64,000 bases of DNA. It comes from Longimicrobiales bacterium (GTDB taxonomy: Bacteria > Gemmatimonadota > Gemmatimonadetes > Longimicrobiales > Gaopeijiaceae). Of this stretch, positions 4,147 to 19,001 are shown in pieces; the stretch's first letter is position 1; every line of letters begins with the position of its first letter. The translations under genes and the position numbers were made by a program. The notes beneath the pieces are model-generated. The model had not been told where the DNA came from. It searched no databases and worked only from the letters and a program-made list of their open reading frames with translations. The stretch spans positions 1,664,001-1,728,000 of the forward strand of contig CAXXKM010000003.1 in assembly GCA_963664435.2 (NCBI GenBank). The letters run 5' to 3'.

Positions 4147-4578
4147 CTACGCCCGCAACTTCCTCGATCCGAACCACACGCCCACGACGCCGATCACCGG
4201 GTTGAGCCACGAGACCCATGCCGGCTGCCGGGCGCCCGCGGTCGCCTCCATCATCGACACGTCGTCGGGGCGCGGCCCGGCCGCCATCTCCATCGGCATA
4301 AGCGCGGCTACCACCCCGAGCACGATCACGATGGCGATCAGAATCGTGGCGGCCCTGGCATCGTGCGCCACCCTGGCACAGACTCGGCCGCCGATGTACG
4401 CGGCCACGAGCCCAAGCACGATCGAGCCGAGCGCCCAGCCGCCAGATACCTCCCACGAACCCGGCTGGAAGGCGCGCGAGGGCCCCAGCGTCAGCCAGAG
4501 AAGCGAGAAGAGTGCGAAGAGCGCGGCGGCCATGGCAATGTAGCCGACGATGGCGGCGAGGATGTTCCTGAGCATCAT
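4147..4578 (-). CDS. Small hypothetical membrane protein (about 4 TM helices)
   Basis: Hydrophobic C-terminal part of ORF 4147..6000, starting MMLRNILAAIVGY with AGGAG RBS. Confidence 0.8.
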   Translation of the reverse strand: MMLRNILAAIVGYIAMAAALFALFSLLWLTLGPSRAFQPGSWEVSGGWALGSIVLGLVAAYIGGRVCARVAHDARAATILIAIVIVLGVVAALMPMEMAAGPRPDDVSMMEATAGARQPAWVSWLNPVIGVVGVWFGSRKLRA

Positions 4579-4679
4579 GTTTCTCCTGAGAGCGTTTTGA
4601 AGCTGTGGATGTGGCAAAATGACGGACGACCGCCGTGGGCCCCGAGGAGAGATCCGGGTCGCCGCCGCGTTCCCCCGGG

Positions 4680-6113
4680 TCAATACCGCCCGAGCCGTTC
4701 CCGATAGGAGAGCACCTCCTTCCTCAGTACGGGCGCGAGCAGGTACAGCCCCAGGAGATTGGGAATCGCGACCACGTAGATCATGGCGTCCGAGAGGTCG
4801 ATCAGCGCGGCGAGATTGATGCTGGCGCCAAGGACGACGAAGCCGCAGAAGAACAGTTTGAAGCCCGCCTCCACCGACCGGTGCTCGCCGGTGAGGTAGG
4901 TGAGCGCCTTCAGGCCGTAGTAGCTCCACGAAATCATGGTCGAGAAGGCGAACAGCACCGCGGCGACGGAGAGCGGCACGGGCGACCAGGAGAGCGTGCT
5001 CTCGAAGGCCGTCTTGGTCATCTCGATGCCGTTGATACCCGCATCGGCCAGCGCGGGATCGTAGACCGTGGTGATGATGACCAGCGCCGTCATCGTGCAG
5101 ATGACCACGGTGTCGATGAACGGCTCGAGCAGGCTGACGAAGCCTTCCGTGCACGGTTCGTCGGTCTGCACCGCCGAGTGGGCGATGGCGGCGGAGCCGA
5201 GGCCGGCCTCGTTCGAGAAGACCGCGCGCCGGAATCCGATGATCATGACCCCGATCATGCCGCCGCCGACGCTCTCCGGCGAGAAGGCGCCCTGCCAGAT
5301 CTGGACGATGGCGGCGGGCAGCCGGTCGGCGTTGATGCCGATGATCGCCAGGGCGGAGAGCACGTAGAGCACCGCCATGAAGGGGACCAGCTTCGAGGTC
5401 ACCCGCGCGATGCTCTTGATCCCTCCGACGATGACCATCGCCACGGCGACGGCCATGAATACGCCCAGCAGCCAGGCCTTGTCGCTGAAGAAGCTGCCTC
5501 CGGCGCCCGTGACTTCGATCAGGATGGCGGCGGCCTGGTTGGACTGGAACATGTTGCCGATGCCGAGACAACCGAACACCATGGCGGCGGCGTAGAACAT
5601 TCCCAGGCCGCGGCCGACCCGGGGCAGGTTCCGCAGCTCGAGGCCGCGCTGCAGGTAGTACATGGGACCGCCGCTGACGGAGCCCTCCGGGTTGGTGTGA
5701 CGGTATTTCACCGCCAGCGTGCACTCGGCGAACTTGGTGCTCATTCCGAGCAGGCCGGCGATGATCAGCCACAGCGTGGCACCGGGCCCGCCCAGCGAGA
5801 TCGCAACCGCCACCCCCGCGATGTTCCCGATGCCGACCGTGCCCGACACGGCGGTGGCGAGCGCCTGGAAGGGCGTGACCTCGCCCGGCTGCGAAGGATC
5901 GGTGTAGCGGCCCCTGACCAGGTCCAGCGCGTGCTTGAAGCCGCGCACGTTGATGAAGCGCAGGTACAGGGTGAAGAACACGCCGCCGGCGATGAGCCAC
6001 GCCACGATGAGGGGCACCTGGGCGCCGGCGATGGGCACGGCGTAGAAGATGAAGCCGGCGACCGCGTCCGTGACCGGCTGCATGTACTCGTTGATGAGTT
6101 CGTCGAAACCCAT
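4680..6113 (-). CDS. Alanine/glycine:cation symporter (AGCS family)
   Basis: FQALATAVSGTVGIGNIAGVA, GGPMYYL, FSNEAGLGS and EPFIDTVVICTMT signatures. Confidence 0.95.
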   Translation of the reverse strand: MGFDELINEYMQPVTDAVAGFIFYAVPIAGAQVPLIVAWLIAGGVFFTLYLRFINVRGFKHALDLVRGRYTDPSQPGEVTPFQALATAVSGTVGIGNIAGVAVAISLGGPGATLWLIIAGLLGMSTKFAECTLAVKYRHTNPEGSVSGGPMYYLQRGLELRNLPRVGRGLGMFYAAAMVFGCLGIGNMFQSNQAAAILIEVTGAGGSFFSDKAWLLGVFMAVAVAMVIVGGIKSIARVTSKLVPFMAVLYVLSALAIIGINADRLPAAIVQIWQGAFSPESVGGGMIGVMIIGFRRAVFSNEAGLGSAAIAHSAVQTDEPCTEGFVSLLEPFIDTVVICTMTALVIITTVYDPALADAGINGIEMTKTAFESTLSWSPVPLSVAAVLFAFSTMISWSYYGLKALTYLTGEHRSVEAGFKLFFCGFVVLGASINLAALIDLSDAMIYVVAIPNLLGLYLLAPVLRKEVLSYRERLGRY

Positions 6114-16990: not shown

Positions 16991-17288
16991 GTCCAGCCTC
17001 TCCAGTCGGCCGGCCCTGCCGGAGCCGCCGATGCCTGTGTGAGTCGGGGCCGGCGCGGAAGCACCGGTCCGGATGGGATTCAACGTCCCGGGGATTCATT
17101 CTGCGGGTCCGGGGCCCGGGAGAATGTAGTATGGACGATTCCGCGGTGCTCGCAAACGATGCCGGCGAGGGCCGCGCATGGTGCCGGCGGGGAACCGGCC
17201 CGGCAGACTCGACCGCAGCTTGACGGGACGCAACGCCGGGGCGTACGCTGCCCGGACACTCGTCCCCTTGATAGACGTGGAGAGAGTA

Positions 17289-19001
17289 ATGACCAGGTCG
17301 AACCAACCCCTCGTCGTTGTCGCGGTCGCCCTTGTCGCCAGCGTGGCCGCCTGCAGCCAGGATGCCGGCCCGCCCGCGGACACGATCTTCCACGGCGACA
17401 ACATCGTCACCATGGATCCGCAGCAACCCACCGTGGAGGCGGTCGCGGTGCGTGGCGAGACGATCCTCGCCGCCGGATCGATGGACGAGGTGATGGCTCT
17501 TCAGGGATCGTCGACCCGGGTGGTGGAACTGGGCGACAACGCCCTCCTGCCGGGGTTCATCGACTCGCACGGCCACTTCCTGGGCGCGGGCCGCGACCAG
17601 ACCTCCCTGGGGCTGCACCCGCCGCCGGTGGGCGACGTCAACAACATCGACGACCTCGTGCGCAAGGTGCGGGCGTGGATCGATGAACACGACATCCCTC
17701 CCGGCGAGGCAGTGACCGGGCGCGGCTACGACGACTCGCTGCTCGAGGAGGGCCGGCACCCGACGCGCGAGGATCTCGACCGCGCGTCGACCGAGCACCC
17801 CATCGTCCTCATGCACGTGTCGGGCCACCTGACCACGACCAACTCCGCCGCTCTCGAAGTCAGCAACATCACCGCCGACACGCCCGACCCGCCCGGCGGA
17901 CATGTGCGCCGCATCGCGGGTTCGATGGAGCCCAACGGCGTGCTGGAGGAGACGGCCCGCGGGCTGCTGGCCATCGACCGCTATGGCACCCCTTCGACGA
18001 TAGAGGAGATGGATGAGCTCATCCGCCGATCCATCGACGTGTACCTGAGCCACGGCACGACCACCATCCAGGACGGCGGGACCGCTTCGGAGCAGGCGGA
18101 CATGTTCCGGGAGGCGGCGGCCCGGGAGCCATTCAAGGCCGACGTCGCGGCTTTCGTCCGCAATCGCGCCATGCCCAACGAGGTCCCGGACGTGCCCTAC
18201 ACGCGCGGATACGAAAACGGCTTCCGCGTGGCCGGGGTGAAGCTCATGCTCGACGGCTCCCCCCAGGGGCGCACAGCCTGGGTCACGATTCCGTACGAGG
18301 AGGGACCGCCGGGCGCCCCGCCGGACTATGTTGCGTACGGCGTCATGGACCCCGCCGTTTACAAGGCGCAGGCGGACCAGCTGATCGAGGCGGGCATCCC
18401 CATCATCGTGCACGCCAACGGCGACGCGGCCATGGACCTGATGATCGACGGGGTGGACGAGGCGGTCGCCGACATGGATCCCATGCCCGACCACCGTTCC
18501 GTCATCATCCACGCCCAGCTCATGCGCGCAGACCAGCTGGACCGGTCAGCGGAGCTCAACATTGTGCCCTCGTTCTTCGCGGCACACGCCTTCTTCTGGG
18601 GCGACTGGCACCGGATCAGCTTCGGCGAGGATCGGGGCAACAACACCAGCCCGATGGGCTGGGCCCTGGAGCGGGGGGTGAACTTCACCATCCACAACGA
18701 CGCCTCGGTGGTCCCGCCGCACATGATGCGCCTGGTGTCGATCGCCGTGAACCGCAAGACCCGCAGCGGGCACATCCTCGGGCCGCACCAGCGGCTGACG
18801 GTGATGCAGGCGCTGCACGCGGTGACCCTCGGGGGCGCCTACCAGTACTTCGAGGAGGACACCAAGGGCTCGATCACGGTCGGCAAGCAGGCCGACCTGG
18901 TGATCCTGGACGAGAACCCGCTGACCGCGGACCCGGAGAACCTGGAGTTCATCCCGATCCTGGAGACGTTCTCGCGGGGCAGGTCGGTATTCGCCATGTA
19001 G
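17289..19001 (+). CDS. Metal-dependent amidohydrolase (Amidohydro_3, YtcJ-like), predicted lipoprotein; paralog of 11985-13712
   Basis: PGFIDSHGH, DGSPQGRTA, VHANGD, IIHAQ, IHND, GSITVGKQADLVIL; VAAC lipobox. Confidence 0.92.
   Translation: MTRSNQPLVVVAVALVASVAACSQDAGPPADTIFHGDNIVTMDPQQPTVEAVAVRGETILAAGSMDEVMALQGSSTRVVELGDNALLPGFIDSHGHFLGAGRDQTSLGLHPPPVGDVNNIDDLVRKVRAWIDEHDIPPGEAVTGRGYDDSLLEEGRHPTREDLDRASTEHPIVLMHVSGHLTTTNSAALEVSNITADTPDPPGGHVRRIAGSMEPNGVLEETARGLLAIDRYGTPSTIEEMDELIRRSIDVYLSHGTTTIQDGGTASEQADMFREAAAREPFKADVAAFVRNRAMPNEVPDVPYTRGYENGFRVAGVKLMLDGSPQGRTAWVTIPYEEGPPGAPPDYVAYGVMDPAVYKAQADQLIEAGIPIIVHANGDAAMDLMIDGVDEAVADMDPMPDHRSVIIHAQLMRADQLDRSAELNIVPSFFAAHAFFWGDWHRISFGEDRGNNTSPMGWALERGVNFTIHNDASVVPPHMMRLVSIAVNRKTRSGHILGPHQRLTVMQALHAVTLGGAYQYFEEDTKGSITVGKQADLVILDENPLTADPENLEFIPILETFSRGRSVFAM

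Follow-up and report, generated by a model that had tools for sequence, protein, structure and literature searches.

Polysaccharide utilisation loci (PULs) of the Bacteroidota place a tandem susC-susD pair beside genes for a lipoprotein hydrolase and an inner-membrane permease, and the pairing of SusC with SusD is textbook biology. Taurine dissimilation is the province of tpa-xsc-pta clusters, whose chemistry is established according to a study of TauR regulons (PMC5320631); as described there and for Ca. Taurinisymbion (PMC10356861), taurine enters by TauABC, TauKLM or GabP, and alanine dehydrogenase and sulfite oxidation are encoded elsewhere in the genome. The naa system of Ruegeria pomeroyi (naaS, naaT, naaABC; PMC4334477) uses import by an ATP-binding cassette (ABC) transporter, a metallochaperone and hydrolysis of the amide to feed N-acetyltaurine into taurine catabolism. 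Finally, two 2026 preprints report that Amidohydro_3/YtcJ-like enzymes are taurine-selective, metal-dependent bile salt hydrolases (mBSH or metalloBSH; PMC13081988, PMC13081902), with dinuclear metal ligands, an S/H/Q/N/H sulfonate site, an association with taurine catabolism genes and, in Bilophila, extracytoplasmic cleavage; the preprints describe surveys of gut catalogues or metalloBSH mainly from Desulfovibrionaceae. Here we analyse a locus at positions 4147-19001 of a 64,000-nucleotide window from a Longimicrobiales bacterium (Gemmatimonadota; assembly GCA_963664435.2, contig CAXXKM010000003.1, positions 1,664,001 to 1,728,000) that shares features with each of these systems. We read it, with a probability of roughly 0.62, as a PUL-like system for N-acyl-taurine (taurine-amide) conjugates. 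SusC/SusD would import the bulky conjugate. Its amide bond would be split in the periplasm, outside the cytoplasm, by two metallohydrolases predicted to be lipoproteins; the released taurine would enter through an AGCS symporter, and Tpa, Xsc and Pta would turn it into acetyl-CoA, alanine and sulfite. Neither the enzyme class nor the pathway is new; what is new is their coupling to a SusC/SusD importer. Our literature search found no description of SusC/SusD with taurine genes, nor of mBSH homologues in marine or sponge bacteria (the supplementary tables of PMC13081902 could list such homologues), and the ABC route for N-acetyltaurine was the only bacterial uptake route for natural taurine amides that it returned. 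The features are as follows:

4147-4578, minus strand: small membrane protein with no Pfam match and of no known family, linked to the locus within the genus only
4680-6113, minus strand: AGCS-family Na+/amino acid symporter, candidate taurine importer (TIGR00835, 395 bits against a cut-off of 273)
6157-7146, minus strand: pta, phosphate acetyltransferase (PTA_PTB, PF01515, 322 bits)
7221-8498, minus strand: susD-like lipoprotein, 425 aa, with a Cys25 invariant in the alignment (weak PF07980, 30 bits)
8521-11613, minus strand: susC, SusC/RagA TonB-dependent transporter, 1030 aa (TIGR04056, 431 against 368)
11864-11892, minus strand: promoter-like element TTGCGA-17-CACAAT upstream of susC (pattern chosen post hoc)
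11985-13712, minus strand: ah1, Amidohydro_3 metallohydrolase, 575 aa, predicted lipoprotein signal at Cys25, predicted taurine-amide hydrolase (PF07969 and residues)
13793-15187, minus strand: tpa, class III aminotransferase, likely taurine:pyruvate aminotransferase, 464 aa (PRK07678, 496 against 488)
15260-16990, minus strand: xsc, sulfoacetaldehyde acetyltransferase, 576 aa (TIGR03457, 739 bits against 676; PRK07525 above its cut-off)
16991-17288, no strand: intergenic region between the divergent xsc and ah2, in which promoter-like hexamers are conserved for ah2 (17220-17249) and probably for xsc (alignment of nine loci)
17289-19001, plus strand: ah2, divergent Amidohydro_3 metallohydrolase, 570 aa, predicted lipoprotein signal at Cys22, predicted taurine-amide hydrolase (PF07969 and residues)

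The eight minus-strand genes have starts supported by ribosome-binding sites and run xsc-tpa-ah1-susC-susD-pta-AGCS-small open reading frame (ORF), with gaps of 72, 80, 371, 22, 74, 43 and 101 bp. A first-pass annotation of the same DNA had described eight co-oriented genes and a divergent amidohydrolase paralog; its coordinates and all seven gaps are reproduced exactly, and the paralog is ah2, 43-44% identical to ah1. The Tpa product shares 56% identity with plasmid records that carry the Tpa annotation, and its gene adjoins xsc in relatives, its specificity being assigned by homology only; Pta scores slightly below the NCBIfam cut-offs (306 against 310; 294 against 311), and the SusD product, beside its weak Pfam hit, matches solved homologues of SusD in a profile search. 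No characterised close homologue was found in the PDB for ah1 (matches 3ICJ and 3IGH) or for Tpa. The tandem susC-susD with predicted lipoprotein hydrolase and permease resembles a Bacteroidota PUL, but the locus lies in another phylum, has no sensor-regulator and is predicted to serve a non-glycan substrate; a Pfam search of 4147-19001 detected no carbohydrate-active enzyme, glycoside hydrolase or lyase. Unlike described tpa-xsc-pta clusters it combines SusC/SusD with AGCS, and Pfam and NCBIfam searches returned neither a TauABC/TauKLM transporter nor a TauR/MocR regulator among the locus genes. In contrast to the naa system, SusC/SusD and predicted lipoprotein hydrolases stand where that system has an ABC importer and a metallochaperone; the Pfam search found no ABC transporter or COG0523-type gene at the locus.

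The predicted function of ah1 and ah2 is supported at the level of individual residues. Both proteins retain all six metal ligands of the HxH, K, H, H, D set taken from PMC13081902 (H98, H100, K322, H378, H410 and D474 in ah1; H94, H96, K318, H375, H408 and D471 in ah2). The Beduini mBSH is reported to contact the sulfonate through S144, Q290, N337 and H393, the S, Q and N mutants losing activity (PMC13081988), and the same four residues are modelled in PMC13081902. We mapped these positions from the mutagenic primers of PMC13081988 and the B. massiliensis sequence, counted by eye, and the equivalents are S181, Q330, N380 and H435 in ah1 and S178, Q326, N377 and H433 in ah2. The sequence contexts are IHA-S-GH, DGSP-Q-GRTA, AHC-N-GDA and FFVA-H-TY in the Beduini enzyme, HV-S-GH, DGSP-Q-GRTA, HA-N-GDA and FFAA-H-AF in ah2, and HT-S-GH, DGSN-Q-GFT, HG-N-GDA and FFVG-H-VF in ah1. 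The S/Q/N/H set, tested together with the His two residues after the Ser, is present in ah1, ah2 and 120 of 120 ah1 homologues, and four other paralogues in the window genome keep between none and two of the four residues. In a quick tree of 36 selected rows, the proteins with the motif group in a single clade (SH-aLRT 99), with the other genome paralogues outside it. The clade includes P0164, a Holdemania-cluster protein that nearly matches a row of the mBSH table of PMC13081988 (Table S9), the listed member itself not having been assayed; ah2 is 41% and ah1 39% identical to P0164, and that paper sets its annotation threshold at 40% identity or more to an mBSH. What the first-pass annotation had offered as a guess, that the amidohydrolase cleaves taurine amides, thus gains residue-level support from the homologues characterised in PMC13081988 and PMC13081902, and we infer taurine amides as the substrate class. 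The full motif was lacking in the two 'ah3' hydrolases of genome G348 and in the second hydrolase of G162. In favour of the taurine-conjugate reading, a genome search found no Ntn bile salt hydrolase.

The two proteins also differ from the described enzymes, being predicted lipoproteins, two paralogues, neighbours of SusC/SusD and a permease, and members of a non-gut Gemmatimonadota lineage. The extra C-terminal domain of the 945-aa Bilophila metalloBSH is missing from both, which therefore do not belong to the BwBSH subfamily. Their N-termini carry a hydrophobic stretch and a lipobox-like Cys, and a loose lipobox pattern recurs among ah1 homologues, in 30 of the 33 from the genus and 61 of the 87 that are more distant, which suggests that cleavage would be periplasmic; as reported, the Beduini mBSH has no lipobox leader and the Bilophila enzyme is secreted through a Sec signal. 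According to the 2026 mBSH preprints, characterised enzymes acted solely on taurine-bile acid amides in tests that included N-acetyltaurine, so N-acetyltaurine is the less likely substrate here and the acyl part is probably bulky, such as a fatty, steroid or aromatic acid. Natural taurine amides with all three kinds of acid are known, 47 being counted in PMC4515633, and a vertebrate bile salt would be an unlikely substrate in this organism. Two further occurrences in this family were noted. A distant hydrolase of a second type, with S-H-F-N-Y at the motif positions, lies beside motif hydrolases in G348 (L044:7055-10747) and Shewanella oneidensis (L157:6968-8701), and an annotated mBSH-clade hydrolase with the motif (P0240 / P0310) occurs in the gut protist Tritrichomonas musculus, possibly by transfer from bacteria.

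Because the window genome encodes 14 SusC genes above the cut-off and six hydrolases of the ah1/ah2 type, chance adjacency had to be tested. Another susC-susD pair lies about 7 kb from the locus, and the SusC/SusD pair could be an unrelated passenger, one of many, that arrived here a single time and has been passed on as a block, by inheritance or by transfer. Within the genus, xsc was found in 17 of 18 genomes, ah2 is divergent from xsc at 17 of 17 loci, and the run xsc-tpa-ah1-susC-susD is intact at 12 of 16 informative loci (G012, whose contig ends in tpa, was left out). Across eight pairwise comparisons dN/dS was 0.10-0.18 for susC, 0.08-0.22 for susD and 0.12-0.20 for ah1, and the block is under purifying selection. 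We discarded genus-level synteny alone as evidence, as the unrelated flanks dmpA, hydratase and capA are conserved there too. The window susD (7221-8498) is 99% identical to that of G011 (L033), with a dS of 0.03 as against 0.46 for xsc, pointing to recent exchange between species; such signs of block exchange are what a passenger would leave, as is repeated loss of susCD.

The more informative comparison is therefore outside the genus. We sampled 400 genomes of the order (15 from the genus, 385 from outside it), scoring four SusD candidates per genome. A SusD orthologue at 62% identity or above occurred in 13 of 15 genus and three of 385 non-genus genomes, all three with xsc, and the next match stood at 50%; xsc itself, at 57% or above, was found in 11 of the 385. 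An ah2 orthologue (at least 67%) was present in ten non-genus genomes, eight with xsc by search and one more with xsc as a contig-end fragment. Among 18 non-genus genomes picked for having xsc or ah2, several of them incomplete, five carry orthologous SusC/SusD (62-70%), always beside xsc/tpa or a hydrolase, in five gene orders:

G325: ah2, susC-susD-AGCS-xsc-tpa, second ah2
G348: xsc-tpa-malate synthase-susC-susD-GcvT-like-two other hydrolases-AGCS-cuyA-like-three ah2, with sat-aprBA-qmoABC-sulP divergent
G187: ah2 divergent from regulator-susC-susD-AGCS-HisD-like
L117: susC-susD-APC permease-xsc-tpa-ah2
L145: susC-susD-APC permease-ah2-xsc fragment

None of the five retains dmpA, hydratase, capA or the small ORF. 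Of 11 non-genus genomes, nine have an AGCS orthologue within the xsc region; in the remaining two it adjoins ah2, tpa or susCD. At some non-genus loci an APC permease replaces it. A metagenome scan with SusD gave five loci, including two short non-genus orthologues; a phylum sample of 400 genomes yielded no further SusD orthologue from beyond the genus, and since two had been found through ah2 loci this sample is not exhaustive. A DRR motif in SusD, considered as sulfonate-specific, was rejected as common to more distant SusDs. The first-pass annotation had named absence or unlinking of the block in relatives as evidence against it; linkage was instead found in the genus and in five other gene orders. 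Its grouping of amidohydrolase, SusC/SusD and xsc-tpa-pta stands with changes: it is ah2 rather than ah1 that is most widely linked to xsc/tpa; SusC/SusD stays with taurine genes but is accessory; and pta belongs to the block in the window genus, its linkage being mostly genus-specific (near non-genus loci, pta was found in G162 and L102 only).

An independent, convergent case is seen in a cultured Bacteroidota strain, Spirosoma oryzicola (NZ_CP089541, L155:5163-16136), with the order susC-susD-hydrolase-LLM monooxygenase-APC permease-cytochrome c-sulfite dehydrogenase. The hydrolase carries the full S/Q/N/H motif and the SusC is 24% identical to that of the window; the monooxygenase best matches alkanesulfonate monooxygenase (SsuD-like) below the cut-off, and SoxC is above its cut-off. 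This cluster and one on plasmid pLA3 of Novosphingobium pentaromativorans (L158:1085-9614) are two of eight named plasmid regions that we examined. Leisingera has an Opp-type ABC transporter beside a motif hydrolase gene, and in some TauR regulons a COG1574 (YtcJ) protein is reported together with an Opp-type ABC transporter (PMC5320631), an earlier hint of a hydrolase-taurine link. Taken with the linkage that outlives five rearrangements, across two families and beyond and with other neighbours lost, and with an orthologue that never turned up away from a taurine/hydrolase cluster, the Spirosoma cluster argues against chance adjacency; the passenger explanation is largely contradicted and we consider it very improbable.

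Expression signals bear on a second alternative. The element upstream of susC lies about 250 bp from the gene, inside the 371-bp gap; it recurs at 13 of 13 genus loci tested, two of them with otherwise dissimilar upstream DNA, and the post hoc pattern occurs once in the whole window. Its conservation in the gap makes two minus-strand transcription units likely, xsc-tpa-ah1 and susC-susD-pta-AGCS-ORF. A consensus promoter scan returned no promoter-like sites, and a terminator scan was at chance level (8 against 5.2 +/- 2.6). By parting susCD from ah1 and grouping it with pta and AGCS, the element would also suit a system in which the hydrolases free taurine at the surface or in the periplasm and SusC/SusD imports free taurine or a small sulfonate (cysteate, 2,3-dihydroxypropane-1-sulfonate or isethionate) at low concentration. 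The cuyA-like gene of G348 and the HisD-like gene of G187, a possible HpsN, are co-occurring sulfonate genes of the expected sort, G006 keeps susCD without ah1, and the B. wadsworthia metalloBSH is described as secreted (PMC13081902). However, an S/Q/N/H hydrolase lies in the same cluster wherever orthologous susCD was seen, ah1 was lost together with susCD in three of four losses, and the many xsc-tpa-AGCS loci without SusC/SusD show that it is not needed for use of free taurine. Free taurine reaches about 1 mM in the pore water of the one sponge reported in PMC10356861, a concentration that would make no call on a TonB system. We therefore regard import of free taurine or a small sulfonate as unlikely, and from context favour a taurine conjugate as the SusC/SusD ligand and taurine as the probable cargo of AGCS.

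Several observations weigh against the taurine-conjugate interpretation. The ah1-susC-susD block is deleted or decayed in G001, G007 and G009, on separate branches, so that SusC/SusD has been lost three times within the genus. No SusC orthologue turned up in 13 of the 18 non-genus genomes, which indicates a core of xsc-tpa-permease, usually with a hydrolase, to which SusC/SusD is an add-on; in G187, xsc-tpa-soeABC-like genes are on another contig than susCD-ah2-AGCS, and support for the SusD clade is 88/82. The motif is broad, and because 115 of 144 scorable 50%-cluster representatives carry S/Q/N/H it may define a substrate class at best. In short homologues from B. wadsworthia, activity on bile salts is reported to be 4- to 100-fold lower (PMC13081902), which may mean that their true substrate is another. 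Xsc or tpa lies within 10 kb at only 13 of 64 non-genus ah2 loci, five of the eight named regions have no clear taurine context, with several named carriers in unrelated contexts, and one survey reports that taurine catabolism is not enriched in sponge metagenome-assembled genomes (PMC8163846). Lastly, of 50 genomes reached through ah2 loci (55 were intended), mostly Acidobacteriota, 42 have no xsc match. Such genomes would fit hydrolases that act on amides of related omega-amino acids (beta-alanine, gamma-aminobutyric acid (GABA) or hypotaurine), or that detoxify or harvest the acyl part, with taurine catabolism a neighbour by shared regulation. The pLA3 cluster, in which a MocR regulator, an AptA omega-aminotransferase, a GABA-permease-like protein and a TonB receptor accompany an S/Q/N/H hydrolase, would fit it too. 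Set against it, characterised enzymes with the motif are reported to favour sulfonate over carboxylate (PMC13081988), and the ah2 orthologue tracks xsc in nine of ten genomes of this order; we judge this alternative improbable.

Acidobacteriota also carry solitary ah2 homologues (L079-L098) at 80-85% identity, closer than most Gemmatimonadota orthologues and mostly in genomes without xsc, and cross-phylum transfer of ah2 is likely. In another genus, whose xsc-tpa is nested inside the window genus and was likely transferred, a reductive-dehalogenase-like gene directly follows tpa (L039:12136-13296; L082, L085, L086), and a 93% homologue of it lies at G000 C1:1067641-1068777.

Downstream of the locus functions, the taurine-conjugate interpretation would leave the oxidation of sulfite to an unlinked SoeABC-like complex and the recycling of alanine to alanine dehydrogenase. 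A SoeABC-like set lies at C3:1124323-1131326 of the window genome beside a SulP permease, its SoeA and SoeBC-like products 72% and 63% identical to those of the xsc-linked genes of G187, and alanine dehydrogenase is encoded elsewhere in that genome. Neither aprAB nor sat was found in the window genome, and a genome search for binding proteins gave one weak, unlinked NMT1-type match and one weak DctP match. In other Longimicrobiales, sat-aprBA-qmoABC(-sulP) lies beside xsc or related susCD (L043:3358-13473, L045, L051, L065), suggesting sulfite oxidation via adenosine 5'-phosphosulfate in those genomes. Around the locus, a CapA-like lipoprotein-type gene (19116-20237) and a DmpA peptidase and hydratase-like gene (1986-4020) flank it in the genus only; an IS630-like transposase lies at 46114-47193, and an Rfam scan of 1-30000 gave a single match, a tRNA at 21130-21202.

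The organism may be a sponge symbiont. Host-associated Longimicrobiales are reported from sponges and corals (PMC10581226), a relative, Ca. Palauibacter irciniicola, has a nested xsc-tpa, and the window encodes large Ig-like/leucine-rich-repeat proteins (22824-27017 and 56748-61730) of a kind that is enriched among sponge symbionts, for which free taurine is known to serve as a currency. At about even odds, in our estimate, the locus exemplifies a dedicated route to taurine conjugates, SusC/SusD for non-glycan N-acyl taurines with membrane-anchored mBSH-family hydrolases, that arose independently in Gemmatimonadota and Bacteroidota and lets probable sponge symbionts mine host taurine amides. 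The analysis gives a large uncharacterised YtcJ-like clade a residue-backed function beyond the gut, and one SusC/SusD pair a context-backed, non-glycan ligand class in a phylum rich in unassigned pairs. The reading can be tested directly on ah1, ah2 and SusD, all three soluble proteins; if true, it would extend the gut mBSH family of 2026 to a widespread environmental clade of taurine amidases and would provide a SusD for an acyl-sulfonate ligand.

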